Assembly: GCA_902625415.1 (NCBI GenBank)
Contig: CACOBG010000007.1
Location: 6,757-70,756, forward strand
Direction of reading: 5' to 3'
DNA: 64,000 nucleotides
Origin: an uncultured SAR86 cluster bacterium
Lineage (GTDB): Bacteria; Pseudomonadota; Gammaproteobacteria; Magnimaribacterales; AG-339-G14
Shown here: positions 8,380 to 43,199 of the stretch, piece after piece
Position numbering within the stretch: position 1 is the first letter of the stretch
Layout of the letters: each line of letters opens with the position of its first letter
Translations under genes and position numbers: made by a program
Notes under the pieces: model-generated
What the model was told of the DNA's origin: nothing
Database searches by the model: none
What the model saw: the letters and a program-made list of their open reading frames with translations, nothing else

Positions 8380-9513
8380 ATGTATTTGAAAAAACTTATT
8401 CTGTGCCTCATGGCATTGTTCTTAGCGCCTCTGTCTTTTTCGGCCTGGGACGACATCAATATGACCCCTGGTGTTAACGCCATTGCCCAAGAAATCTTTG
8501 GCTTGCACATGACCATTTTTTGGATTTGTGTCGTCATCGGTACATTGGTTTTGGGCTTTATGGTTTTTCTGATCATTAAGTACCGCAAGAAAGAGGGCGT
8601 GGAACCTGCTGACTTTGATGATAATCCAAAACTAGAACTAACTTGGACAATATTGTTCGCTCTGATTCTCGTGGGTATGGCAATTCCTGCGACTTCAACC
8701 ATGATAAAAGCTTACGATGATGAAGAAGGGGACATTAACATCCTGATCACTGGACATCAGTGGAAATGGCAGTATGAATATATGGAAGACGAAGTAAGTT
8801 TTTTCAGTAATTTAACAACATCTTTAGACGCCAGAAACAACATAGCCCCCAAAACAGAAACTTATCTGTTAGAGGTTGATGAGCCTCTCGTAATTCCTGT
8901 GAACAAAAGAGTAAGATTTTTAATTACTGCAAATGATGTTATTCATTCTTGGTGGGTACCAGACTTTGCCGTTAAGCAAGATGCCATTCCTGGTTTTATA
9001 AATACCGCTTGGACATTCGTTGATGAGCCGGGAGTTTATCGCGGACAATGTACCGAATTATGCGGTGTCTATCACGGTTACATGCCAATTGTTGTAAAGG
9101 CAGTTTCAGATTCAGATTATAAAGATTTCATTCAAGGCAAAAGAGATTTGAAAGCTCAACAAGCCTTGCTTACCGAGAAGCTTTGGGAAACAGATGAGCT
9201 TTTTGCAATCGGAGAAGAGGTTTATTTGAAAAATTGTGTCGCCTGTCACCAAGTTAATGGTGCAGGAATTCCACCGGTATTCCCAGCTTTAGCTGGAAGC
9301 GAGATTGTCATGAATGATAAAGGCAGACAAGTAGAAATTTTAATGGAAGGAGTTCAAGGTGCAGCAATGCAATCTTATGCGGAACAACTTTCCGAAGTAG
9401 AGATCGCAGCAGTTATTACCTATACCCGTAAGGCATGGGGCAATGATGCTGGAGGCGACGGCGAAATTGTCGTGCCTAAAGAAATTCTAGATTATAAAAA
9501 CAACAAACTATAA
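8380..9513 (+). CDS. coxB: Cytochrome c oxidase subunit II with fused C-terminal cytochrome c
   Basis: CuA ligands DVIHSW, CTELCGVYHGYM; heme motif CVACH; ATG 8380 preferred over TTG 8347. Confidence 0.96.
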   Translation: MYLKKLILCLMALFLAPLSFSAWDDINMTPGVNAIAQEIFGLHMTIFWICVVIGTLVLGFMVFLIIKYRKKEGVEPADFDDNPKLELTWTILFALILVGMAIPATSTMIKAYDDEEGDINILITGHQWKWQYEYMEDEVSFFSNLTTSLDARNNIAPKTETYLLEVDEPLVIPVNKRVRFLITANDVIHSWWVPDFAVKQDAIPGFINTAWTFVDEPGVYRGQCTELCGVYHGYMPIVVKAVSDSDYKDFIQGKRDLKAQQALLTEKLWETDELFAIGEEVYLKNCVACHQVNGAGIPPVFPALAGSEIVMNDKGRQVEILMEGVQGAAMQSYAEQLSEVEIAAVITYTRKAWGNDAGGDGEIVVPKEILDYKNNKL

Positions 9514-9531
9514 GAGAAGGAGCTGTAAAAC

Positions 9532-11136
9532 ATGAGCGCAGTAATAGAAGGACATCACGACGACCATCATCACCATGGTCCAGCTAAAGGAATAAGCCGT
9601 TGGTTGTTTACTACCAATCATAAAGACATAGGTTCTTTATACTTATGGTTCAGTTTCATCATGTTATTTATTGGTGGAGCAATGGCTATGGTCATCAGAG
9701 CTGAGCTCTTTGAACCAGGTAGTCAAATTGTTTCTCCTGAGTTCTACAATCAAATGGTTACCAATCATGGATTGATTATGGTATTCGGTGTCATCATGCC
9801 AGCTTTCGTGGGCTTCGCAAATTGGTTGGTACCAATGCAAATTGGCGCTCCAGATATGGCTTTACCAAGATTAAACAATTTAAGTTTTTGGATATTGCCT
9901 GCAGCTTTTGGTGTTTTGATAGCAACTTTCTTCATGGAAGGCGGCGCTCCAAACTTTGGATGGACTTTCTATGCACCACTCTCAACAGAGTATGCGCCAC
10001 CCACAGTAACTTACTTCATTTTTGCAGTGCACATTATGGGTGCTTCTTCCATTATGGGTTCAATCAACGTTATTACTACCATTTTAAATATGAGAGCTCC
10101 TGGCATGACTTTAATGAAAATGCCCCTCTTTGTATGGACTTGGCTGATTACTGCTTATCTATTGATCGCGGTAATGCCAGTTCTTGCTGGTGCTGTAACC
10201 ATGATGCTTATGGACATCCATTTTGGAACGAGTTTCTTCAAAGCCGGAGGAGGGGGAGACCCTGTTTTATTCCAACATGTTTTCTGGTTTTTTGGACATC
10301 CTGAAGTTTACATAATGATTTTGCCTGCTTTTGGAATTGTGTCTCACATTATCGAGACTTTCTCGAGAAAGCCTATTTTTGGTTACGAATCTATGGTTTA
10401 TGCAATAGCATCAATTGCATTGTTATCGTTCGTAGTTTGGGCTCACCACATGTTTACGGTTGGGATGCCAATTGCGGGCGAGTTGTTTTTCATGTATTCG
10501 ACAATGTTAATTGCAATTCCAACAGGAGTTAAAGTCTTCAATTGGCTATCAACAATGTTCAAAGGCTCACTAACTTTTGAAACACCTATGTTGTTTGCCA
10601 TTGCGTTTGTAGCGCTCTTCACTATTGGAGGGCTGTCAGGAATCATGCTTGCTATTGCTCCTGCTGATTTCCAATATCACGATACTTACTTTGTAGTTGC
10701 TCACTTTCACTATGTTTTGGTTCCAGGAGCTTTGTTCTCTATCATTGCTGGAGTTTATTACTGGCTTCCGAAGTGGACGGGTTACATGTATGACGAATTT
10801 ATGGGCAAAACGCATTTTTGGCTTTCCTTTGTTTCAGTGAATTTAACTTTTTTCCCAATGCATTTTGTCGGCTTAGCTGGAATGCCAAGAAGAATTCCAG
10901 ACTACGCTATGCAATTTGCGGATTACAACATGATCGTAAGTGTTGGGGCGTTCCTATTTGGGTTATCGCAATTACTCTTTTTATACGTAGTACTCAAAGC
11001 AATTTTCTACGGCAAGAAGGCTACCGGACAAGTTTGGGAAGGAGCCAAAGGTCTGGAGTGGACTTTAGATTCTCCGCCTGCTTATCACACCTTTGAAACA
11101 CCTCCTAACTTGGAGTCAGGAGAAGCCAAAGCTTAA
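9532..11136 (+). CDS. coxA: Cytochrome c oxidase subunit I (A-type)
   Basis: WFFGHPEVY, WAHHM, AHFH; His-rich N-terminus. Confidence 0.98.
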   Translation: MSAVIEGHHDDHHHHGPAKGISRWLFTTNHKDIGSLYLWFSFIMLFIGGAMAMVIRAELFEPGSQIVSPEFYNQMVTNHGLIMVFGVIMPAFVGFANWLVPMQIGAPDMALPRLNNLSFWILPAAFGVLIATFFMEGGAPNFGWTFYAPLSTEYAPPTVTYFIFAVHIMGASSIMGSINVITTILNMRAPGMTLMKMPLFVWTWLITAYLLIAVMPVLAGAVTMMLMDIHFGTSFFKAGGGGDPVLFQHVFWFFGHPEVYIMILPAFGIVSHIIETFSRKPIFGYESMVYAIASIALLSFVVWAHHMFTVGMPIAGELFFMYSTMLIAIPTGVKVFNWLSTMFKGSLTFETPMLFAIAFVALFTIGGLSGIMLAIAPADFQYHDTYFVVAHFHYVLVPGALFSIIAGVYYWLPKWTGYMYDEFMGKTHFWLSFVSVNLTFFPMHFVGLAGMPRRIPDYAMQFADYNMIVSVGAFLFGLSQLLFLYVVLKAIFYGKKATGQVWEGAKGLEWTLDSPPAYHTFETPPNLESGEAKA

Positions 11137-32102: not shown

Positions 32103-32360
32103 ATGACTGATAAAGAGTATTGGAAAGCAAATATAAAGCTATTAATTATTCTCTTGTCCATCTGGCTTATGATCTGGTTTGGATTTGGAATAGTTCTTTC
32201 GGATTTTTTAGATCAATTTTCAATAGGTGGATTCAAATTAGGCTTTTGGTTCGCTCAGCAAGGAAGTATCTATGGTTTTGTGATCCTTATTTTTGTTTAT
32301 GTTTTTGCCATGAATCGCATTGAAAAAAAACTTAAGGATAACAAAGAGGATAAGAGTTGA
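32103..32360 (+). CDS. DUF4212 small membrane partner of SSS transporter
   Basis: YWKAN, GFWFAQQGSI. Confidence 0.88.
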   Translation: MTDKEYWKANIKLLIILLSIWLMIWFGFGIVLSDFLDQFSIGGFKLGFWFAQQGSIYGFVILIFVYVFAMNRIEKKLKDNKEDKS

Positions 32361-34105
32361 GCGCCCAAGCATTAACTTATCTTTTTGTAGGACTTTCTTT
32401 TATGCTCTACATCGGCATTGCTATTTGGTCGCGCGCAGAATCTACTAACGATTTTTATGTTGCTGGGAAAGGGGTGAATCCAGTTGCAAATGGAATGGCG
32501 ACTGCAGCCGATTGGATGTCAGCATCATCTTTTATTTCCATGGCAGGCCTGATTTCTTTTCTCGGGAAAGATGGAGCGGTATATTTGATGGGCTGGACTG
32601 GAGGATACGTTTTATTGGCCCTATTGCTAGCGCCTTACTTAAGAAAATTTGGCCAATATACTGTTCCAGATTTTATAGGCACGCGTTATTACTCAAAAAC
32701 TGCCCGACTCGTTGCAGTACTTTGCTTAATTTTTATTTCTTTTACTTATGTTTCAGGACAAATGAGAGGGGTTGGAATAGTCTTTTCAAGATTTTTGGAA
32801 GTCGAGATAAACATTGGAGTTATTATTGGAATGATTGTAGTTTTTTTCTACGCAGTACTCGGTGGAATGAAAGGGATTACCTACACTCAAGTCGCTCAAT
32901 ATTGTGTGATGATTTTTGCCTACCTAGTACCAGCAATATTCATTTCCATTTTGATAACTGGAAATCCTGTACCTCAATTAGGTTTCGGAGATACTTTAGT
33001 TAATAGCTCCACCTATTTATTGGATAAATTAGATCAACTCTCTATTGATCTAGGTTTCAATGCATATACAGAAAGTACCAAGTCAAATATTGATATTTTT
33101 TGTATCACTGCTGCTTTGATGTTTGGCACCGCAGGATTGCCGCATGTAATTGTTAGATTTTTCACTGTGCCAAAAGTCAGTGATGCCAGAAAGTCAGCCG
33201 GATATGCTCTGATATGCATTGCTATTTTGTACACGACCGCACCTGCGGTAGCTGCTTTTTCAAGGGTAAACTTTATTGAATCCATTCAAGAAAAAAGCTA
33301 TCTAGATTCACCAGATTGGTTTAAAAATTGGGAAAATATCGGCCTAATTGCTTGGAAGGATAAAAATGATGACGGATTGATAAATTATTCAGTAGGCAAA
33401 GCATTTGAAGAGGGTCGTCCAGATTTTCTTGACTCAAGAGGGTCACAAGGAGAGCGCGAAATAAAAAATCCTATTACAAAAGATAATGATAACGAGGTTT
33501 ATATTGATCAAGACATTATGGTGTTAGCTAATCCTGAAATTGCAAAATTACCTGCGTGGGTAATGGCGTTAGTAGCTGCTGGAGGTTTAGCAGCTGCCTT
33601 ATCTACAGCAGCTGGTTTGCTTTTAGTAATATCTTCATCGATATCTCATGATTTACTCAAGAAAACCTTTATGCCCAAAATCAATGAAAAACAGGAGCTA
33701 TTTTATGCAAGGTGTTCTGCAGCAATTGCAATTTTCATAGCGGGACTTTTTGGAATCTATCCTCCAGGCTTTGTAGCACAAGTTGTTGCCTTCGCATTTG
33801 GCTTGGCAGCCTCCACAATATTTCCTGCAATATTTTTGGGTATCTTTCTCAAAAGATTAAATAAGGAAGGTGCTATCTTTGGTATGTTAGGCGGTTTGTT
33901 ATTTACTTCTAGTTACATCATCTTTTTCAAATTCATATCTCCAGAATTAAATAATCCTGAAAATTGGCTTTTTGGCATCTCTCCTGAAGGAATTGGTTTT
34001 CTAGGTATGTTTGTGAATTTTATGATTGCTATTTTTGTTTCTGCTTTAACTGCCAAACCACCAATTAAAGTAGAGCAGATGGTTGATAAAATAAGACTGC
34101 CATGA
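32357..34105 (+). CDS. Sodium:solute symporter, ActP-like (monocarboxylate permease family)
   Basis: NGMATAADWMSA, GTAGLPH, AAALSTAAGLL; paired with DUF4212. Confidence 0.9.
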   Translation: MSAQALTYLFVGLSFMLYIGIAIWSRAESTNDFYVAGKGVNPVANGMATAADWMSASSFISMAGLISFLGKDGAVYLMGWTGGYVLLALLLAPYLRKFGQYTVPDFIGTRYYSKTARLVAVLCLIFISFTYVSGQMRGVGIVFSRFLEVEINIGVIIGMIVVFFYAVLGGMKGITYTQVAQYCVMIFAYLVPAIFISILITGNPVPQLGFGDTLVNSSTYLLDKLDQLSIDLGFNAYTESTKSNIDIFCITAALMFGTAGLPHVIVRFFTVPKVSDARKSAGYALICIAILYTTAPAVAAFSRVNFIESIQEKSYLDSPDWFKNWENIGLIAWKDKNDDGLINYSVGKAFEEGRPDFLDSRGSQGEREIKNPITKDNDNEVYIDQDIMVLANPEIAKLPAWVMALVAAGGLAAALSTAAGLLLVISSSISHDLLKKTFMPKINEKQELFYARCSAAIAIFIAGLFGIYPPGFVAQVVAFAFGLAASTIFPAIFLGIFLKRLNKEGAIFGMLGGLLFTSSYIIFFKFISPELNNPENWLFGISPEGIGFLGMFVNFMIAIFVSALTAKPPIKVEQMVDKIRLP

Positions 34106-35274
34106 CTGTAATTAAATATTTTACTCTAATTTCTTTTTTACTAATTTCGCCCTTGTCTTTTTCTGAAAGTCAGGACAAAAATTATCAGGCACGTCTTCAA
34201 GATGTCATAAAGGCAAGAAAGCTCATGGATAGAAAAAGAGAAAGAGATGAGCTTAAAGATCTTGCTCAAGAATTAGCACAAGAGATTTTAATTATCGATA
34301 CTCATATAGATACGCCGATTCAACTTTATATGCAGCAGGATAAAAATGGATCATATGAAGACATCACAAAGGCTTCTTCCTTGCATTTTGATTTCGATAG
34401 AGCTGTAAGTGGAGGGCTAAATGTACCTTTTTTTGTTATCTTTACACCGCCATCTGCAGAAGAAAAAGGTACATCCTTTGAAATGGCTGAAGAACTCATT
34501 CAGATTCTTGAAGATATAATGAATAAAAATCCTAAGAAATTTAGATTGGTGAAATCCCCGGAAGAAATTACAAACGATAAAGATATTATGCAGGTTGTTT
34601 ACGGAATGGAAAATGGCGCTCCAATTGAAAGTAAGCTTTCAAATATAAAATTATTTTCCGATATGGGGATCAATTACATTACTTTGGCACATTCGAAAAG
34701 CAATCATATTTCAGATTCTTCTTATGATGAAAATAAAAATTGGGGAGGATTAAGCCCTTTCGGAAGAGAAGTTGTTGCTGAAATGAACAAGCAAGGAGTA
34801 ATGATAGATATAAGTCATGTGTCTGATGCAGCCTTTTATGAAGTTCTAAGCCTTACAAAGACACCCGTTATTGCTTCTCATAGCTCATTGAGGCATTTCG
34901 TTCCTGGATTTGAGAGAAACGTTTCTGATGACATGTTGCGAGAATTAGCTAAAAACGAAGGCGTCATTCAAATTTGTTTTGGTTCTGAATTCATTGCTGA
35001 GAAACGAAAATACCCAAAACTTGTTGTCACCGTTCAGGATGTTGCTGACCATATAGATCGGGTAAAAAATTTAGTTGGTGTTGATCACGTTGGAATAGGC
35101 TCCGATTACGATGGTTGGCGAAATTTCCCCGTTGGCTTAGAAGACACTTCTACTTACCCAAATCTAATTGAAGAGCTTTTGAAAAGGAATTATTCAAAAG
35201 AGGAAATCAAACAGATCTTCGGAGGTAATTTATTAAGGGTTTGGCGAGAAGTAAAAAAATTCTCGGAGTCTTGA
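34102..35274 (+). CDS. Membrane (renal-type, M19) dipeptidase, secreted
   Basis: Signal peptide; DTHID, GMENG, DISH, SHS, HVGIGSDYDG. Confidence 0.9.
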   Translation: MTVIKYFTLISFLLISPLSFSESQDKNYQARLQDVIKARKLMDRKRERDELKDLAQELAQEILIIDTHIDTPIQLYMQQDKNGSYEDITKASSLHFDFDRAVSGGLNVPFFVIFTPPSAEEKGTSFEMAEELIQILEDIMNKNPKKFRLVKSPEEITNDKDIMQVVYGMENGAPIESKLSNIKLFSDMGINYITLAHSKSNHISDSSYDENKNWGGLSPFGREVVAEMNKQGVMIDISHVSDAAFYEVLSLTKTPVIASHSSLRHFVPGFERNVSDDMLRELAKNEGVIQICFGSEFIAEKRKYPKLVVTVQDVADHIDRVKNLVGVDHVGIGSDYDGWRNFPVGLEDTSTYPNLIEELLKRNYSKEEIKQIFGGNLLRVWREVKKFSES

Positions 35275-35298
35275 TAGAAAAATCTCATTTGCTATATT
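35271..35298 (+). promoter_or_regulatory. Putative sigma70 promoter for the 35334/36037 gene pair
   Basis: TTGATA-16 bp-TATATT with extended -10 TG. Confidence 0.5.
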
Positions 35299-35333
35299 AA
35301 ATTTCCAAAATATTTTTTTTAAGGAGAGAAAAA

Positions 35334-36020
35334 ATGAAAAAACTTTTAATTTTTATTGTAACTTTTGTTGCGAGTACCGCTTATGCAGTTCCAGCAATGA
35401 ATGTTTTTACAATCAATACTTCTGACCCAATGGGTTACATGGAATGGGCGAGAAAAAGCGCTCCAATCACAGCACCTCCGTCAAACGCATCAGCCGCGGG
35501 CGTGTGTTTGTCTACAGCCGGAGCTGAAGAATTTGGTGATATGTACTTTTTCAATCTATTTGATAGCAATGTAGATTCTTTGAGTGGAGACTACTACAGC
35601 CCCGAGATTGCAGCTGAGATTGCGAAGATTGCAAACAAAAGAACTGTCAGAATGGTAGATCATTACACACCAATGGAGCCAGCTGGAGAAGGTTTTGAAG
35701 TAGGGTTAACTTATTCAAATTACAATTTGAATGTCTATACAAAAAATCCTCAAGCATATATGGAAGCTCTCAAAGACTATGAAGCTGCAGCACAAGCTAA
35801 TGGTTTTGAAGATGTTACCTTAAGTGCTTTTCAAATAAATACAGGCGACTATTCAGGTCAAATTTTGGTTGTCACACAAGCACCCAATGCAAAAAGACTT
35901 GGGCAATTTCTGGATGCAAGAAATGAAGCTTGGTCTACTTCTCTAGGAAATAGATTTCCAAAATTAAGGAAACTAAAGAGAGGCATCATGATGAACTGTG
36001 AAGTTGTCTACGTAAGGTAA
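35334..36020 (+). CDS. Secreted hypothetical protein with an internal two-domain repeat (dimeric alpha/beta-barrel-like)
   Basis: Signal peptide AYA; DPMGYME and NPQAYME half-repeats; SD AAGGAG. Confidence 0.8.
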   Translation: MKKLLIFIVTFVASTAYAVPAMNVFTINTSDPMGYMEWARKSAPITAPPSNASAAGVCLSTAGAEEFGDMYFFNLFDSNVDSLSGDYYSPEIAAEIAKIANKRTVRMVDHYTPMEPAGEGFEVGLTYSNYNLNVYTKNPQAYMEALKDYEAAAQANGFEDVTLSAFQINTGDYSGQILVVTQAPNAKRLGQFLDARNEAWSTSLGNRFPKLRKLKRGIMMNCEVVYVR

Positions 36021-36036
36021 TTTAAGGAGAAAAATT

Positions 36037-36777
36037 ATGAAATTTATAAAAATATCTTTACTTGCTACTTTATTGATAAGTACTTCAGCAATTGCGCAAC
36101 AATTTGCAGCGACAGGTATGCATGCGGGCTTTGGAGTTAATTCAGTTAATCCAATGGCTACTTTTCAAAATGTTAGCAAATATATGGAATCAGAAGATTT
36201 TAAAAAATTAGGCATTACTGCTGGCTTATATGCAAACAACGTTAATGGTGCTGATGATACAACTCACCTTATCGAGTTTTATTATCCAGATGCTGCGTCG
36301 TATCAAAAAGCTGTTGATATGGCCACTACTTCATCCGCAGTAGCTAATTTAGTATCAACCGCAGCGCAAAATGGTACGCAAAATACTTATGAATCTGTGT
36401 ACATCAATGTTAGAGAAAAAATCACAGCAGCTGATGTAGAAAAAAATAAGGTTTTTTATGTATGGCGCGTGGAAACTACTGATCTTCCAAGATATCTCCG
36501 TGAGTGGGACAAAATGATTGAAGAAATAGAAGAAGAAGGCATAGCTGGCGATTCTTATGGCATGAAAGTTGCTTTTGCAGGAGCCGTTCACGGTGAAACT
36601 CTATTCGTTTGGGCGGGTTACGAAAATCAGCAACAAATGATTGAACAATTGGCAGTATTTAATGATTCAGAAAGCTTTGCTAATTTTAATAATAGAACTC
36701 AAGGCTTTTCTTCAATAGTTGCTAATGAAATATCAACTCAATTAGCTTTATGGAATGGAGCTCTATACACTGAGTAA
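36037..36777 (+). CDS. Secreted hypothetical protein with an internal two-domain repeat (NIPSNAP/DABB-like)
   Basis: Signal peptide AIA; THLIEFYYPDAA and TLFVWAGYENQQ half-repeats; SD AAGGAG. Confidence 0.8.
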   Translation: MKFIKISLLATLLISTSAIAQQFAATGMHAGFGVNSVNPMATFQNVSKYMESEDFKKLGITAGLYANNVNGADDTTHLIEFYYPDAASYQKAVDMATTSSAVANLVSTAAQNGTQNTYESVYINVREKITAADVEKNKVFYVWRVETTDLPRYLREWDKMIEEIEEEGIAGDSYGMKVAFAGAVHGETLFVWAGYENQQQMIEQLAVFNDSESFANFNNRTQGFSSIVANEISTQLALWNGALYTE

Positions 36778-38059
36778 ATTTAAAAAGGCGGGGCGACTCG
36801 CCTTTTTAATTGGATTAATTTTTTTGCTGAACTCCTGCGGAGGAGGTGGTGGAGGTAGTAGTCCCGTAGAAGTAACTGAAACCACGCAAGCTGGTTTCTC
36901 CTACTCATCTTTTAGTGCTTGGATATCAGCTTTTAATAAGTTTGAAAGCGACTGTGAGTCGGAAAATGCAAATTGTACAGAACAACAGGCAAGGTCATTA
37001 CTGGAAAGTGCAATTTCGTCATTATCAATTGAAACTGAAGCGATACATGTTTATTACACTTCACCAGGAGTAGGAGGGATAGGTTTCAATCCTGGCGAAT
37101 CTTCCTATAGATATTTCATACAAGGAAATAGCTTATTTGAAACTTGGAAATTTGATTCAGCAACATTCGGATCTGTTGCATATCCTGGTTTTGAAGTAAC
37201 TTCAGATTTTTTTAGCTACCCAACATTTTCATACAATTTTCCGGGCTCGCTTAGTGGCTTATTATCTTTAGAACATGAAAGAATAGGCGTGACAGATAGT
37301 TCTCTTAATGAAAAAGTCTTCAAAGGAATACATATAAGACCTCTAGAGAATTCAGGAATATTCTGGACTGGGACTCAGTATAACTGGGCTGAAATTGCAG
37401 AATTTGATTATGGGAATACTTGTGATTATTCAGGAGACCCTCGTTATTGTTTGAGAATTTCACTAGATAATAAAGTAGATATTTCTGTCACAGGAACAAT
37501 CTTTGGGTTTAAAACTTTTAGTGGTGATATGCCTGCCTCAGGATCTTTTAGCTATAGATCTTATGCTGTTTCTAAAGGAGTTTATGAGAAAGGAGACCTA
37601 GACTTTCTCTATTCGGGAAACTCTATAGATGCTTATAATACTTCTAGTTGCAATGTCACAAATCCCTCTCACAAATCTTGTGCTTGGAAAACTTCAGTTG
37701 CCGTCTCGGCTGAACAATTTATTTCAGTAAACTTTTCAGAGAATACATTGACAGGCTCAATTGGTATGCAAAATTTTTATTATGAGTCTTCATCAGGAAC
37801 CATGACACTTTTAGATAACGCTAGCTACGCTCCACATAAATCCACACTCGATAACCTCTCTATATCTGCAACTATCACTGGCAATAGTTTTTCTGGCACT
37901 GTATCTAACTCTCATTTCAGCGGATCAATATATGGAAATTTTTATGGACCTAGTGCCAGCGAAATTGGAGGAGTGATTGTCTTAAATACTCTTCCTAATA
38001 CTTCTTACTATCTATCAGATGCAGCTTTTTCAGTGATAGTTATATCTGGAAAAAAATAA
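36755..38059 (+). CDS. Surface lipoprotein with C-terminal TbpB-like beta-barrel
   Basis: Lipobox LNSC then GGGGGGSS linker; GNFYGPSASEIGGV barrel motif; Ser/aromatic-rich. Confidence 0.7.
   Translation: MELYTLSKFKKAGRLAFLIGLIFLLNSCGGGGGGSSPVEVTETTQAGFSYSSFSAWISAFNKFESDCESENANCTEQQARSLLESAISSLSIETEAIHVYYTSPGVGGIGFNPGESSYRYFIQGNSLFETWKFDSATFGSVAYPGFEVTSDFFSYPTFSYNFPGSLSGLLSLEHERIGVTDSSLNEKVFKGIHIRPLENSGIFWTGTQYNWAEIAEFDYGNTCDYSGDPRYCLRISLDNKVDISVTGTIFGFKTFSGDMPASGSFSYRSYAVSKGVYEKGDLDFLYSGNSIDAYNTSSCNVTNPSHKSCAWKTSVAVSAEQFISVNFSENTLTGSIGMQNFYYESSSGTMTLLDNASYAPHKSTLDNLSISATITGNSFSGTVSNSHFSGSIYGNFYGPSASEIGGVIVLNTLPNTSYYLSDAAFSVIVISGKK
36781..36808 (+). terminator. Intrinsic terminator after the 35334/36037 pair, inside the 5' end of the lipoprotein ORF
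   Basis: TAAAAAGGCG-GGGCGACT-CGCCTTTTTA. Confidence 0.7.
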
Positions 38060-38062
38060 CAC

Positions 38063-39112
38063 TTAATTAATTTTTAGGTATTTTTTAATTGCTTTAATTT
38101 CATCTTCGTCATATGGAGAACCATCAATTCTATAAATATCGTGAAACCATTCTTTAGGCTCTGGCAACACATCTCCCTCATTTACGAATTCACCTTTCTT
38201 CTTTTTGTCTTGGAGCTCTAAAATTGTTGACCAACCAAAATGAGTCTGACTTTTACCCGCGACAAATCCCCAGTTGTAACAACCTACATTTTCTTTTTTA
38301 AAGATGGGCAGCGAAAATTCAAAAGTGGTACCAAATTCTCTTGCCATATACTCGGTACACAACAAAGGTCTTCCAAATTCTTTGAGTCTTTCAATAGTAG
38401 GCTCAAGTTTTTCTGCTTCATAAGTATGAAAAGTTATTACATCTGAATTTTCACCATTGAGCTTTAAGATTTCATCTCCAATTGCACCATCCAAACATGA
38501 AGTTAGAGGTTGAGAAGGTCTAACTTCGAAAGCCCATTCCCAAGTATATTGAAGTAATTTTAGAGCTTTATCACCAATTCCAAATTGACCAGGTTCGTTA
38601 TAAATATCCCACATCAAAATTCTTTCATCGCTTGAGTAGTCTTTGAGGACGCCTTGGACAAATTCTTTTAATCTGCTTAATTCATTTGCATCAATTCTTT
38701 TCTCATCAACTTGATTGACTAATTCCATACCAGGACTTTGCTTCCAACCAGAGTTGTGAACTCCTTTAACTGGCAAGGGTTGTTTGCCTAATTTTGGATA
38801 GGGCCGGTGACAATCGTCAAAAAGAACAATAATTGGTCTGATATTTCTTTTTTCACAAATATCTAAAAATCTATCAAAAGTTTTTTTGAACTTATCTTTC
38901 TCTGACCAAAGCAAATCATGCAAGTAAACCCTTAAAGAATTGAAGCCAAGATCTTTTGCCCAATCTAACTCTCTTTCAATTGTTTTTTCATCAAAAGTAT
39001 CTTCTTGAAACATTTCCAGTTGATTTATTGCTGAACTTGGCAAAAAGTTGCAACCAACAAGCCATGGTTGTTCTTTGTACCAACTATTTGCTTTTTCTTT
39101 TGACCACTTCAT
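38063..39112 (-). CDS. Clan GH-A (GH5-like) glycoside hydrolase
   Basis: WDIYNEP acid/base, CTEYMAR nucleophile; no signal peptide. Confidence 0.82.
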   Translation of the reverse strand: MKWSKEKANSWYKEQPWLVGCNFLPSSAINQLEMFQEDTFDEKTIERELDWAKDLGFNSLRVYLHDLLWSEKDKFKKTFDRFLDICEKRNIRPIIVLFDDCHRPYPKLGKQPLPVKGVHNSGWKQSPGMELVNQVDEKRIDANELSRLKEFVQGVLKDYSSDERILMWDIYNEPGQFGIGDKALKLLQYTWEWAFEVRPSQPLTSCLDGAIGDEILKLNGENSDVITFHTYEAEKLEPTIERLKEFGRPLLCTEYMAREFGTTFEFSLPIFKKENVGCYNWGFVAGKSQTHFGWSTILELQDKKKKGEFVNEGDVLPEPKEWFHDIYRIDGSPYDEDEIKAIKKYLKIN

Positions 39113-39122
39113 GTTTTAAAGT

Positions 39123-39539
39123 TTAATAAATCAGAATAACAATTGAAAACATATAACAACCACAAACTCCTGAGGTGAGATTTTTTCTTAGTTTTAAATA
39201 ATCAGGATTAGTAAATTGAGGATTGACCTTGGACTCTAAGAGATAGAAAAGAAAAAATAAGAAAAACAACAAAGTCATCGCATAAATAAGATTTATCCAA
39301 GCCAATAGAATTGCTCCAAATCCCAAAAGAGAAAAAACAATGGCTAGAACAAGATTTTTCCTATTTGTTGCATCAATACCCCAAATAATTCCTGATAAAA
39401 AAGAGATTATTATGCCTCCATATACAACTAATAATTGAAAAGAAATCTCTTCGTAAGTTTCTCCAAAAATCCAAGGCAGGATTGTGAGAGCTGCAAAGGG
39501 TAGAAAGCCTAAATAACCAAGGGTAATTTTAGTTTGCAT
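39123..39539 (-). CDS. DUF3429-like membrane protein
   Basis: LGYLGFLPF, YGGIIISFLSGIIWG, LR..LT. Confidence 0.8.
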   Translation of the reverse strand: MQTKITLGYLGFLPFAALTILPWIFGETYEEISFQLLVVYGGIIISFLSGIIWGIDATNRKNLVLAIVFSLLGFGAILLAWINLIYAMTLLFFLFFLFYLLESKVNPQFTNPDYLKLRKNLTSGVCGCYMFSIVILIY

Positions 39540-39764
39540 TTATCCATGAGCCATTTTGAGAAGAGTCATGAAAAGTATACCTGTTCCAATAACACCACTG
39601 ATCAGTATTATTAGGTCAACAACAAACACCTGAAAAAGCTTCAGCCAAGATCTTTCTTTGCCTTCTTTGATATCTTGCAAAAGATACATAAAAGCACTTA
39701 TCTTAAAAAGCACAAAAGCAGTTAAGAAAGTTATGCCGCCAAGAATAAAAATCCCAGAGTTCAT
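39540..39764 (-). CDS. Two-TM hypothetical protein (74 aa)
   Basis: Two hydrophobic helices; in line with neighbouring genes. Confidence 0.6.
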   Translation of the reverse strand: MNSGIFILGGITFLTAFVLFKISAFMYLLQDIKEGKERSWLKLFQVFVVDLIILISGVIGTGILFMTLLKMAHG

Positions 39765-39780
39765 CTTAGATTAGTTACAT

Positions 39781-40992
39781 TTAAAGTTTGTAACCTGACT
39801 GGCCGTGTTCAGCCACATCCAGACCTTCTTCCTGAGAATCATCTGATACTCTCAATCCAAATATAGATCTTGTAATAAGTAATAAAATAATTGAGCCAAC
39901 CAAAGTAAATAGTCCAACACTAACCGCACCAATAACTTGTGTAGTCATTAAATCACTAAAACTAGAACCTTCGTCGTATCCAATTCCACCATAACTTTCT
40001 GCAGTCAAAAACGGAATAAGCAAAATTCCCAACAGTCCACCAATACCATGAACAGCAAAAACATCTAAAGAATCATCAATATTAAAAGTTTCCTTAACGA
40101 TATTGACCATGTAGTAGCAAACTCCACCGGCAATCAAACCAATGATCAAGCCACCCATTGGGCCAACTGAGCCACTTGCTGGAGTAATGGAAGCTAGACC
40201 TGCTATACAACCTGTAACAGCTCCAACCAAAGAAGATTTACCAAACTTAACTTTTTCAATGATGATCCAGACAATAGTCGCTGTAGCTGCTGATATGTGA
40301 GTCACCAAAATTGCCATTCCAGCATCACTATTTGCAGCCAATGCGCTACCGCCATTGAAGCCGAACCAACCAACCCATAACATACATGCTCCCATCATGG
40401 TTAAACCTGGGTTATGCGGAGGTTGTACAGAATTTGGGAAGCCATCTCTTGGGCCTAGAAAGTAGGCTATAACTAGAGCGGTTATACCTGCAGTAAGGTG
40501 TACCACAAGTCCACCGGCAAAATCTCTTACTCCCATTTCATAAAGCCAACCACCTTCTGCCCAAATCCAGTGAACCACGGGAGCATAAATTAAAATTACC
40601 CATAGTAAAGAAAAGGCGGCCACAAAACTGAATTTTATTCTTTCTGGGTATGCTCCAACAATCAAAGCAGGAGTTATGATGGCAAAGGTCATTTGGAACA
40701 TAAAGAAAACACTTTCCGGAATGTCTCCAGACATGCTATCCCTCGATAAATTTGCTAGAAACAGATTTTCTAAATCTCCAACATAAGCTCCAGTTCCACT
40801 AAAAGCAATACTGTAGGCAATTACCAGCCAAGCGATTGAACTGATGCACGCAATGGTGAAACAATGCATCAAAACTGAAAGAATGTTACTAGCCCTTACA
40901 AGACCTGCATAAAATAATGCTAAGCCAGGCAAGGTCATAAATAAAACTAGGGCAGTGGATGTAATTATCCAAGCTGTATTTCCAGTATCCAT
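39781..40992 (-). CDS. amtB: Ammonium transporter (Amt)
   Basis: DTGNTAW, FQMTFAIIT, DFAGGLVVH, WVGWFGFNGGS, DVFAVHG; ATG 40992 with SD AAGGGGA. Confidence 0.95.
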   Translation of the reverse strand: MDTGNTAWIITSTALVLFMTLPGLALFYAGLVRASNILSVLMHCFTIACISSIAWLVIAYSIAFSGTGAYVGDLENLFLANLSRDSMSGDIPESVFFMFQMTFAIITPALIVGAYPERIKFSFVAAFSLLWVILIYAPVVHWIWAEGGWLYEMGVRDFAGGLVVHLTAGITALVIAYFLGPRDGFPNSVQPPHNPGLTMMGACMLWVGWFGFNGGSALAANSDAGMAILVTHISAATATIVWIIIEKVKFGKSSLVGAVTGCIAGLASITPASGSVGPMGGLIIGLIAGGVCYYMVNIVKETFNIDDSLDVFAVHGIGGLLGILLIPFLTAESYGGIGYDEGSSFSDLMTTQVIGAVSVGLFTLVGSIILLLITRSIFGLRVSDDSQEEGLDVAEHGQSGYKL

Positions 40993-41088
40993 AGTGTATT
41001 CCCCTTTAAGTGTAAGATAAAACTTTAACAAAAAGTTTTTTGGTAAATGAGTCTAAATTAGTGCAATAAATGCACTATCAAAGGGCAG

Positions 41089-41604
41089 TTAAGAACTTTC
41101 AGGATATTTTGAAAGAATTTGAGAAATTATTTCGTTAGCCATATCTTGATCATCAAGAGAATTGGTATTTATTCTCATATTTGCATACCAAACAACTTTA
41201 TCTAATTCTTCATCAAAAAATTTTACTGATAAGTAGTTTAAAGGAGGAAAGTCATTGGTATAAAACTTGTGAGAAAAAGGATCATTTCTGTAACCATAAA
41301 AAAAATGCGAAGAATTTACTTGTCTATATCTCTCTTTCTCTTTTACTGAAAAGCTTATTTTTAAGGACGACTTGTTATTTTGGTTTAATCCAAGTTGAGT
41401 AAGAGATGAAGATAAGGCTTTAGCAATTCTATTTATCCTTATCGGGTTTTCTTCCTCATCGGATTCAACTCTGAAAGGGTCAGGTTTGAAAATTTTAAAA
41501 TCTTTATATTTGGCAGCAGAGAAAGCTTCATCTGAATCGACTTTGACAACAAAGCCAGAAGCACAAGATGTGAGCAAAACTAAAATTATTAACCTAGCTA
41601 TCAC
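41089..41604 (-). CDS. DUF4136-like lipoprotein
   Basis: Lipobox LTSC; VVWYA and C-terminal ..ILSKYP pattern. Confidence 0.6.
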   Translation of the reverse strand: MIARLIILVLLTSCASGFVVKVDSDEAFSAAKYKDFKIFKPDPFRVESDEEENPIRINRIAKALSSSLTQLGLNQNNKSSLKISFSVKEKERYRQVNSSHFFYGYRNDPFSHKFYTNDFPPLNYLSVKFFDEELDKVVWYANMRINTNSLDDQDMANEIISQILSKYPESS

Positions 41605-41659
41605 TCCAATATTATAACTTTGTTATAGTAATCAGAGTAAATTTTTTAAGGAGAGAAAA

Positions 41660-42397
41660 ATGAAAAAAATGTTAATAGTTCTGATGTTACTAGCTCCCTC
41701 ATTGAGTTTTGCATCACCTACTTGGGTTGAATACCTTATAAAAGTGGATAGTCCCGAAAGTGCAGCAAAAATTGTAGCTGCTACAGATAAATTTATGTCT
41801 TCTGAATTTGTTAAGAACAATTTTAAAGGATCTTTGCACTTAAATGCTTATATCGCTGGCGGCAAGGTAGAGGAAACTCATTCTTTTGCAATTCTTCAGC
41901 CAAGCTTAGCTGAACATGAGATTTGGCTAGCCAAAGTTAGTGATCCAAATAATGAAGAAGTGAGAAAATTTGGTTCCGTGCTTAATGCAAACTCTGAAGG
42001 AGTTGGCTCAAGAATCAATGTATTCATTCAAACATATGGAACACCTTCAAACAAAGATACTGTTTGGGCAATTTATCCATTTAGAACGAAGGCTTCAAAT
42101 GTTGAAGATATAGTAGATGCTACTGAAGATTTAGATGAAGCAATTAAAGATTCATTTCCAGGACAGTTTGGTCTTTCAGAAAGAATGGCTGGCGGGGGCA
42201 TGCAAACCCATTTGTACACGGTAGGTTATGAATCCCTAGCTGAAATGGAGCAATGGGAAGATTCCGCTTCTAGAGATACAGGCCTTTCTCCATTTGATAA
42301 AGAAATGGATAAGTTAGTAGAGTGGCATGAAAGAGAAATAGTGAGAAACATAAGGGTTTATGATTCTGCAATGACTCTTCAAGATTTCGTTGAATAA
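41660..42397 (+). CDS. Secreted hypothetical protein with an internal two-domain repeat (NIPSNAP/DABB-like)
   Basis: Signal peptide SFA; THSFAILQPSLAE and THLYTVGYESLAE half-repeats; SD AAGGAG. Confidence 0.8.
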   Translation: MKKMLIVLMLLAPSLSFASPTWVEYLIKVDSPESAAKIVAATDKFMSSEFVKNNFKGSLHLNAYIAGGKVEETHSFAILQPSLAEHEIWLAKVSDPNNEEVRKFGSVLNANSEGVGSRINVFIQTYGTPSNKDTVWAIYPFRTKASNVEDIVDATEDLDEAIKDSFPGQFGLSERMAGGGMQTHLYTVGYESLAEMEQWEDSASRDTGLSPFDKEMDKLVEWHEREIVRNIRVYDSAMTLQDFVE

Positions 42398-42398
42398 A

Positions 42399-43199
42399 AT
42401 GAAAATTTTTACAGCCGCTTTGTCCACCCTTGTTTTAGTTGTAGCTTGTAGCTCAGCAGAAGATGAAATGGAAGTTTCGTTTTCAAACCTTGGTTCGGAT
42501 GATTATCCGCAAATGTTTTATATGGAGTATGTTCCATGTCAGGAAGGCGTTTATTACACCGCAGAAAATTTCAGAAATGAAGTTCTTCCTGAGTGGCAAG
42601 ATTTATTGGTGGAGGTTAATTCGCCATTGGTATCCTCATATGGTATTCAACATGTTCAAAGGCTATCTTCTGATAATGAAGACGGCTTTTGGCAGTTGAT
42701 ATGGAATACCAAAGCCGATGCTGAGGCTGCATGGAAAGTTTGGAACTCAAATGAAAATGTTGCTAGATGGACAGAGGATACAGCTGAGATTCTTTCTTGT
42801 GACGGTGAAAACAAATTTTCGTTTGATGCTTATATAGCAAGAGCAAATGATACTTTTGGGGAATTTGACACTACCAGCTTTACCTCTGAATATTTTCAGT
42901 GCTTGTACAAGGAAGGTAAAGAGGGAGCAGATCTTCGTGAAGTTATAGGAGAACTTGAAACGTTTCTAGAGGATGCTAATTCTCTTCCAGGACCTTTTAG
43001 TTATGTAATTTTGGGTCCCGATTATGAAACGAGCGAAGTTGACTTTTTCTGGGGAAATTTTTATCAATCGGAAGAAGCAAGGCAATCCTTTGATGCCGAG
43101 TGGCAAAAACTTGATCCTGATGTTGAGGAAAGTTGGAATATGGTTTCAGATTGTGAAGAGCCTAGATATTACAACTCAGGAATAGTCCCAACGAGCTAA
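42399..43199 (+). CDS. Lipoprotein with two Cys-paired repeated domains
   Basis: Lipobox VVAC; halves YVPC...FWQLIW...SCD and YFQC...FWGNFY...DCE; ATG 42399 preferred. Confidence 0.78.
   Translation: MKIFTAALSTLVLVVACSSAEDEMEVSFSNLGSDDYPQMFYMEYVPCQEGVYYTAENFRNEVLPEWQDLLVEVNSPLVSSYGIQHVQRLSSDNEDGFWQLIWNTKADAEAAWKVWNSNENVARWTEDTAEILSCDGENKFSFDAYIARANDTFGEFDTTSFTSEYFQCLYKEGKEGADLREVIGELETFLEDANSLPGPFSYVILGPDYETSEVDFFWGNFYQSEEARQSFDAEWQKLDPDVEESWNMVSDCEEPRYYNSGIVPTS

Follow-up and report, generated by a model that had tools for sequence, protein, structure and literature searches.

What are the four secreted proteins that two gene pairs encode in a 64,000-nucleotide stretch of an uncultured SAR86 cluster bacterium (contig CACOBG010000007.1 of assembly GCA_902625415.1; the whole stretch is called the window below), and what could they do outside the cytoplasm? 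We refer to the first pair as A1 and A2 and to the second as B1 and B2 (Table 1). An initial annotation of this DNA had described the four products as duplicated domains resembling dimeric alpha+beta barrels (DABB), and had regarded them as a candidate undescribed system. On the evidence assembled here we give an even chance to the reading that they belong to a multigene SAR86 family of exported proteins, in which fused pairs of β-α-β-β-α-β units bind or transform small organic molecules and the paralogues differ in substrate. The family is a new branch of a very large and already known fold superfamily; what is new are the export signals, the disulfides, the tandem arrays, a hypervariable gene slot and the fact that A2, B1 and B2 are confined to SAR86.

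The four open reading frames (ORFs) were confirmed at the coordinates first given for them, in a region of 36 % G+C. The start of B2 is most likely the ATG at 42399, 1 base past the B1 stop, since the TTG at 42390 chosen by the ORF program would overlap B1. Export was upheld for all four proteins. A1, A2 and B1 each begin with a Sec signal peptide that has small residues in positions -3 and -1, with predicted cleavage (marked by a slash) at MKKLLIFIVTFVASTAYA/VP in A1, ...STSAIA/QQ in A2 and ...SLSFA/SP in B1, and B2 carries the lipobox LVVAC/SS. The proteins are indeed unannotated, with nothing above cutoff in Pfam or NCBIfam for any of the four or for about 60 of their homologues.

The fold is clearest for A1, which has 97 representative homologues reaching down to ~20 % identity. 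An AlphaFold2 model built from an alignment of 28 sequences (pLDDT 93.4, pTM 0.86) contains the β-α-β-β-α-β unit twice, and hhalign comparison of its N-terminal and C-terminal halves gave a probability of 95.5 (E 1.5e-8). A Foldseek search of the PDB with this model returned as best match 2PGC, a tandem alpha+beta barrel (E 2e-11, TM 0.71/0.77, ~217 columns), followed by the tandem 'putative monooxygenases' 3MCS and 3F44 and, further down, by chlorite dismutase, HemQ, DyP, aldoxime dehydratase and sulfur oxygenase reductase. The model superposes over its full length on the tandem DABB proteins 2pgc, 3mcs and 3f44 (TM 0.59-0.77), the barrel being formed within one chain.

2PGC is the marine-metagenome protein jcvi_pep_1096685590403, solved by JCSG in 2007 with function unknown, and is filed in SCOP under 'marine metagenome family DABB3'. 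Like A1 it is of marine origin and is a single chain in which two ferredoxin-like units form an alpha+beta barrel. Using a 2PGC gene family gathered from metagenomes, the profile comparison with the A1 family (hhalign) gave a probability of 88.6 and E 2.7e-6 over 186 collinear columns; the same family matched A2 and B1 weakly (probability 14) and showed no link to B2. Unlike the window proteins, members of the 2PGC family are ~207 residues long, are cytoplasmic and have no signal peptide, their ORFs starting with MSxTNYV at strand 1. As this family lacks a signal peptide and is homologous to A1, A1 is, judged by profiles, an exported cousin of a cytoplasmic tandem barrel. The fold therefore cannot be called undescribed, 2PGC being a detectable homologue of A1. 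The 2PGC family also lacks a cysteine pair that is characteristic of A1: C58 and C222 are both present in 24 of the 28 aligned sequences and both absent in the other four, never singly, and this covarying pair linking the halves fits a disulfide that would staple them together in an oxidising compartment.

Extending the fold to the other proteins required profiles, as BLASTP detected no pairwise similarity among the four. A hidden Markov model (HMM) of the mature region of A1 scored 28 bits with A2, 39 bits with the A2 homologue P0020 (67 % identical) and 16 bits with a member of the B1 family, against 7.8 bits for the best of 3,900 shuffled sequences. Collinear hhalign alignments covered 205 columns between A1 and B1 and 149 columns between A2 and B1 (P 3e-4 to 8e-4), and the A1, A2 and B1 families were one another's top cross-hits among all window ORFs. 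On these profile matches we accept A1, A2 and B1 as distant homologues. The two halves of B1 match each other (hhalign probability 96.4, E 1.2e-9), while those of A2 do not; the C half of A2 aligned with the N half of A1 at a probability of 55.6 and its N half with the N half of B1 at 28.6.

The motif TH-x5-[YQ]-x-[SD]-x-A, which the initial annotation had noticed in A2 and B1, is real. It occurs in A2 (THLIEFYYPDAA) and twice in B1 (THSFAILQPSLA, THLYTVGYESLA), where TH...S.AE is found in both halves, and it corresponds to the signature of strand 3 and helix 2, visible in 2PGC too; 2PGC and B1 also share the motif hLLxVGYxSxxxxE. In the B1 family 43 columns are invariant; His, Asp, Glu, Asn and Trp are frequent among them, and they include two of four conserved histidines (H60 and H184 are invariant, H74 and H86 occur in at least 90 % of sequences), and with so many invariant polar positions B1 looks like a protein with a specific site.

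B2 belongs to a sequence family of its own, and other SAR86 genomes encode many Sec-type paralogues of it. Its halves match weakly (P 0.0075 over 97 collinear columns), and an internal duplication is indicated by four invariant cysteines with spacings of 87 and 84 residues, by the matching motifs EYxPCxxG and EYxQCxxxEG, and by the match of the N half of B2-like paralogues to the C half of B2 (hhalign probability 97.2, E 3.5e-11). Residues 155-259 of its AlphaFold2 model form a β-α-β-β-α-β unit at moderate confidence (block-mean pLDDT 52-84). The duplicated DABB fold is therefore strongly supported for A1 by its model, is supported for A2 and B1 by homology, and holds only partly, for the C half, in B2. 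Independent support for placing B2 in the same system comes from the genomic linkage of A1-, B1- and B2-type genes across the order, described below. No histidine is invariant among the B2 columns. In other SAR86 genomes, 21 of 27 Sec-type B2-like paralogues have [AS]-D-[DG]-H where cleavage by signal peptidase is predicted (the B2-like genes concerned lie at 8752-11036 in locus L005 and 8774-9532 in L006, and others in L028-L038; L numbers denote related loci). The mature N-terminus D-D-H of such paralogues would be an X-X-His motif resembling the ATCUN type that binds Cu(II) or Ni(II); the DDH motif occurs in none of A1, A2, B1 and B2.

Related loci were collected with the B1 alignment, and all fetched loci were scanned with the four HMMs (A1, A2, B1, B2). 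The B1 family was found in 27 species-level genomes, nearly all from SAR86 (Magnimaribacterales) and including the cultured isolate HIMB1674. Two SAR86-type B1-B2 loci, L017 and L030 (89 % and 51 % identity), are on contigs labelled as Flavobacteriales and Terriglobia metagenome-assembled genomes (MAGs), labels that are probably binning errors. Arrays were seen in 20 or more genomes, the isolate among them. The more distant SAR86 genomes carry one contiguous array of the form [B2-like]n-A1-B1-[B2-like]n, usually of 3-5 genes with a minimum of two (L008); examples are B2-like-B1-B2-like-B2-like-B2-like in L005, A1-B1-B2-like in L006 and A1-B1-B2-like-B2-like in HIMB1674 (L035). These arrays of 3-5 paralogues bear out the idea of an expanded family. 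They also show that the two separate pairs of the initial annotation are a lineage-specific state, since other SAR86 genomes hold A1, B1 and B2-type genes together. The B2-type gene comes next after B1 in all loci but one, and the orthologues of B1 and B2 are 43-93 % identical across the order, evolving at ordinary rates. This conserved adjacency, together with the 1-nt gap between the genes, makes a functional partnership of B1 with a B2-type protein plausible. A B2 orthologue (44 % identity) also stands alone in another SAR86 lineage (L010-L012), with no conserved partner genes.

In the subclade of the window, to which A2 is confined (all A2 homologues share at least 67 % identity), the gene order is sodium:solute symporter (SSS), M19 dipeptidase, a variable slot, GH5, DUF3429, Amt, DUF4136, B1, B2 and glucokinase. 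The B1-B2 unit is constant there, with 75-93 % identity, similar to its flanks. The slot between the M19 dipeptidase and GH5 genes (window positions 35275-38062; the same slot in L013-L031) holds seven gene combinations, and the genes flanking it are 82-98 % identical across SAR86 genomes. It contains A1 and A2 in five genomes, A1 alone in one, A2 alone in one and an A1 allele (55-57 % identical) alone in five; in L031 it carries a third, 237-residue type together with A2, in L023 a TbpB-like lipoprotein together with the third type, and in the window A1, A2 and a TbpB-like lipoprotein. The third type (A3) is an exported paralogue with TH motifs in both halves and ~25 % identity to A2. As A1 and A2 vary in this way among near-identical strains, an obligate A1/A2 heterodimer is unlikely.

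The expression signals attributed to the first pair, namely a sigma-70 promoter, strong ribosome-binding sites and a terminator of its own, are all real and conserved in relatives. The promoter-like site has 10 of 12 consensus matches plus the TG extension and is kept upstream of A1 in the SAR86 relatives L014-L016, L019 and L025. AAGGAG precedes each of A1, A2 and B1. The initiation contexts of A1 (35310-35340) and B1 (41637-41666) share almost the same 28 bases, TTTTTTAAGGAGAGAAAA(A)ATGAAAAAA, which are retained in relatives. Three bases past the A2 stop lies the terminator hairpin (dG -17.8 kcal/mol, z -5.0), which also closes the slot in ten relatives, regardless of which gene is last. The inverted repeat in the B1 promoter region is kept in most of 12 relatives, with variants of 1-2 bases in L023, L024 and L026, and may be an operator. 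Inspection by eye revealed nothing convincing as a Fur or Pho box upstream, no matrix scan having been made, and neither the window nor four array loci contained a match to any Rfam family.

A1-A2 is covered by near-identical contigs in four marine metatranscriptomes, and in two independent runs contigs cross the A1-A2 junction (35479-36251 in run X3 and 35904-36279 in run X5); no metatranscriptome contig lies over 36942-38543, and B1-B2 is more thinly covered than A1-A2. This coverage fits a bicistronic A1-A2 mRNA terminating at the hairpin, and equally fits sampled strains without the TbpB-like gene. Contig depth is a poor gauge of expression, so that of the earlier phrase 'highly expressed' the presence of transcripts stands, and their level can be given qualitatively only. 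Elsewhere, at 32136-32669, contig depth rises to as much as 155 (run X2), far above the rest of the 16 kb examined. A small DUF4212-like ORF lies here, together with the beginning of the sodium:solute symporter gene; the region may be highly expressed in fact, or it may be conserved enough to attract cross-mapped reads.

The distant arrays have a different leader. A conserved box, AGAGAnAGTTGGGGAGCATTCTC, is followed by a hairpin of genome-specific sequence and then by the ribosome-binding site GGAGAGGT. It occurs once per locus, directly upstream of the first array gene (L005 7128-7229, L032 5642-5722, L033 6420-6500, L035 7187-7287, L036 6372-6451 and L038 6363-6444), and is absent from the window. 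The hairpins are out of register when aligned, so that RNAalifold gave no consensus structure for this leader, and the box has no Rfam match; it could be a cis-regulatory RNA or an operator.

Taken together, the products would reach the periplasm by the Sec pathway, with B2 anchored by lipid, and each chain would be a fused ferredoxin-like β-α-β-β-α-β pair that mimics the two-chain barrel of cytoplasmic relatives, the exported forms being stabilised by disulfides. The genes would have arisen by tandem duplication, with one array [B2-like]n-A1-B1-[B2-like]n as the probable ancestral state; in the window lineage, A1 and its variable partners would have come to occupy the hypervariable slot ~5 kb from the stable B1-B2 unit. 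A1 and A2 would be transcribed together as a bicistronic operon from a promoter of their own, with strong ribosome-binding sites and a conserved terminator, and B1 and B2 are close enough that their translation may be coupled. By analogy with ABM, Dabb and 2PGC-type relatives, we infer periplasmic binding or processing of small organic molecules that would need no nucleotide cofactors; the paralogues would differ in substrate and would not be obligate heterodimers, B1 probably acting with a B2-type protein.

A role with small substrates is favoured because every relative of known function uses the cleft that lies between its sheet and helices to bind or transform haem or a small molecule. Many DABB relatives, such as ABM oxygenases, isomerases and cyclases, need no nucleotide cofactors. 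Such support for function is weak, and consists of the structural neighbours of known function, all of which bind small molecules or haem, of sub-threshold matches to ABM (PF03992) in three of 21 B1-family members (best E 0.031), no window protein reaching the threshold, and of the surroundings of 2PGC-family genes, which are single genes amid assorted catabolic enzymes (SDR, dienelactone hydrolase, 2OG oxygenase, MaoC, MFS) with no pattern. The tandem proteins of ABM type, 3MCS and 3F44 together with the anthrone-oxidase-like 5F9P and PenE (9KDP), resemble A1 in tandem arrangement and size, have Foldseek E values of 1e-9 to 1e-5 and possess a similar strand 3-helix 2 motif, but they are cytoplasmic and none of their catalytic residues can be aligned with the window proteins. 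Chemistry of the ABM type is cofactor-independent and feasible in the periplasm. NIPSNAP, EthD and DUF1330, to which the initial annotation had compared the four proteins, share the fold superfamily; membership by sequence could not be sustained, as DUF1330 appeared only at E 0.16-0.17 in two A1-family members and NIPSNAP and EthD never appeared. PDB sequence searches with the A1, B1 and B2 profiles gave nothing significant, the sole hint being B1 against 2pgc at E 0.44. No paper on 2PGC or on exported DABB proteins was found in the literature, and the paper on HIMB1674 makes no mention of these proteins.

Several observations weigh against a ligand-handling family of this kind. In the A1 family only Y35, R103 and G171 are conserved at 95 % or more, and no residue set looks clearly catalytic. 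For B2 the AlphaFold2 model (17 sequences) is poor, with pLDDT 48, and resolves only the C half; Foldseek matches of this model are weak (E 2e-3 or higher) and mostly of DABB type, and served as a hint only, and no sequence similarity ties B2 to A1, A2 or B1, the best probability being 13.7 even with a larger profile of B2 and B2-like sequences. Relatives of A1 outside SAR86, in Woeseia, Hyphomonadaceae, Acidobacteriota, Myxococcota and other gammaproteobacterial MAGs, are isolated 'hypothetical' genes in unrelated contexts with no conserved partner genes, and no conserved neighbour indicates a pathway at the loci examined. Non-enzymatic roles would likewise be compatible with the extreme divergence of the paralogues and with how much the A slot varies between strains.

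The proposal of the initial annotation was that A1/A2 and B1/B2 form heterodimers carrying lipids or other TonB-imported substrates across the periplasm. Hydrophobic ligands are commonly bound by the DABB fold, the genes of each pair are adjacent and co-transcribed or closely spaced, and a B2-type gene almost always follows B1. SAR86 relies heavily on TonB-dependent transporters (PMC11582366). The proposal is nevertheless improbable in our estimate, as near-identical strains have A1 alone, A2 alone or A3 with A2, the B2 orthologue of L010-L012 has no partner, and each chain is already a pseudo-dimer; at the loci examined no TonB-dependent receptor, transporter or inner-membrane partner is linked. 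We assign a similarly low likelihood to periplasmic haem or metal handling, in the manner of IsdG, HemQ, DyP, EfeB or ATCUN Cu/Ni-binding proteins. The chlorite dismutase, HemQ and DyP/EfeB (CDE) superfamily has two ferredoxin-like units per chain and was matched by Foldseek at E ~1e-6, including coproheme decarboxylase; EfeB and DyP are exported to the periplasm, B1 has its four conserved histidines and many conserved acidic residues, and most B2-like paralogues of other SAR86 genomes have the D-[DG]-H mature N-terminus. However, the CDE enzymes are larger than A1 and reach TM of only 0.5-0.58 with it, below 2pgc, and EfeB is exported by Tat whereas the window proteins carry Sec-type signals. 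The proximal histidine that ligates haem has no conserved counterpart in the A1 and B2 families; the few conserved polar residues of A1 and the absence of any conserved histidine from its 28-sequence alignment argue against His-ligated haem in this protein. By eye, nothing resembling a Fur box was visible upstream, linked iron genes are absent, and the window's own proteins lack DDH.

Less weight falls on the two explanations that dispense with a metabolic ligand. One would see fast-evolving envelope proteins under diversifying selection, acting as immunity or decoy factors against periplasm-acting toxins or phage, so that the arrays are collections of variants and not metabolic modules. A slot with A1 alleles only 55 % identical and with A2, A3 and a surface-lipoprotein gene present or absent, between genes that are well conserved across strains, is what such selection might leave, and orphan immunity clusters typically take the form of divergent exported paralogues arrayed in tandem. 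It is made very unlikely by the persistence of B1 and B2 as orthologues across the order at ordinary rates, with 80-93 % identity beside flanks that are similarly conserved, by the lack of any toxin, type VI secretion or contact-dependent inhibition gene nearby, and by the single occurrence of A1 relatives in unrelated marine phyla; we know of no immunity family with the DABB fold. Marginally less likely still are periplasmic stress or chaperone-like proteins with no specific ligand, comparable with the plant Dabb/SP1 'stress-responsive' barrels. In favour are the strong expression signals, the SP1 and Dabb proteins among the weak matches of the B2 model, and the motif TH...F.S.E, which resembles the Dabb signature, but those matches come from a low-confidence model, Pfam Dabb is not matched, and B1 has so many conserved polar residues that a specific site seems likely there.

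Within the preferred reading of exported barrels that handle small molecules, a bolder version is conceivable, which we consider doubtful though less so than any of these alternatives. The exported tandem barrels may handle ligands in the periplasm as a class of proteins not seen before, be it as carriers or as enzymes without cofactors, and replace classical solute-binding proteins behind the many TonB-dependent transporters of SAR86. A core of B1 and a B2-type protein would perform a common step, and the variable A slot (A1 alleles, A2, A3 and an occasional TbpB-like lipoprotein) would set the substrate range and partition niches among co-occurring strains.

The TbpB-like lipoprotein gene that follows A2 in the window is not a member of the family. 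Its product matches PF01298 (E 8.5e-13, 49.4 bits against a cutoff of 26) and has the lipobox LLNSC followed by a Gly-rich linker; the NCBIfam model slam_lipo (NF041636) remained below cutoff (42.9 bits against 80), and neither Slam (DUF560) nor a TonB-dependent receptor was present among the neighbouring ORFs scanned, which cover part of the window. The first codons of this ORF overlap the 3' end of A2, and the frame then continues across the conserved terminator hairpin. Its absence from 13 of 14 syntenic SAR86 relatives makes it look like a recent strain-specific insertion without a promoter of its own, and, with its position beyond that terminator, rules it out as a component of the conserved A1-A2 operon.

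Table 1. Positions of the genes and signals discussed, in window coordinates unless a locus is named.
Feature	Position	Strand	Description
Sigma-70-type promoter-like site of A1-A2 operon	35271..35298	+	TTGATA, 16 nt, TG-extended -10 TGCTATATT (TATATT)
A1 ribosome-binding site AAGGAG	35321..35326	+	context TTTTTTAAGGAGAGAAAAAATGAAAAAA, near-identical to that of B1; conserved in relatives
A1	35334..36020	+	228 aa; predicted Sec-exported tandem DABB protein
A2	36037..36777	+	246 aa; predicted Sec-exported paralogue, distant homologue of A1 and B1
TbpB-like lipoprotein gene (not a family member)	36755..38059	+	434 aa; TbpB-type C-terminal beta-barrel
Intrinsic-terminator hairpin ending A operon	36780..36809		13-bp stem, A-tract before, U-tract after
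Inverted repeat TATAAC-TTT-GTTATA (perfect)	41613..41627		B1 promoter region; overlaps -10-like hexamer
B1	41660..42397	+	245 aa; predicted Sec-exported, internal duplication
B2	42399..43199	+	266 aa; predicted lipoprotein, internally duplicated, four invariant Cys
Third paralogue type	L023 3637-4350; L031 2915-3628		same slot

If these turn out to be ordinary stress or structural proteins, the finding shrinks to new families in a very large fold superfamily. SAR86 is an abundant and ecologically dominant marine lineage, and 3-5 or more paralogues, strong expression signals and in-situ transcripts imply an important envelope function that annotation has missed, in a group whose nearest solved relative, 2PGC, has been without an assigned function since 2007. 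The hypervariable A slot might serve as a marker for ecological differences between strains, and the isolate HIMB1674, with its A1-B1-B2-like-B2-like array, makes the function directly testable.

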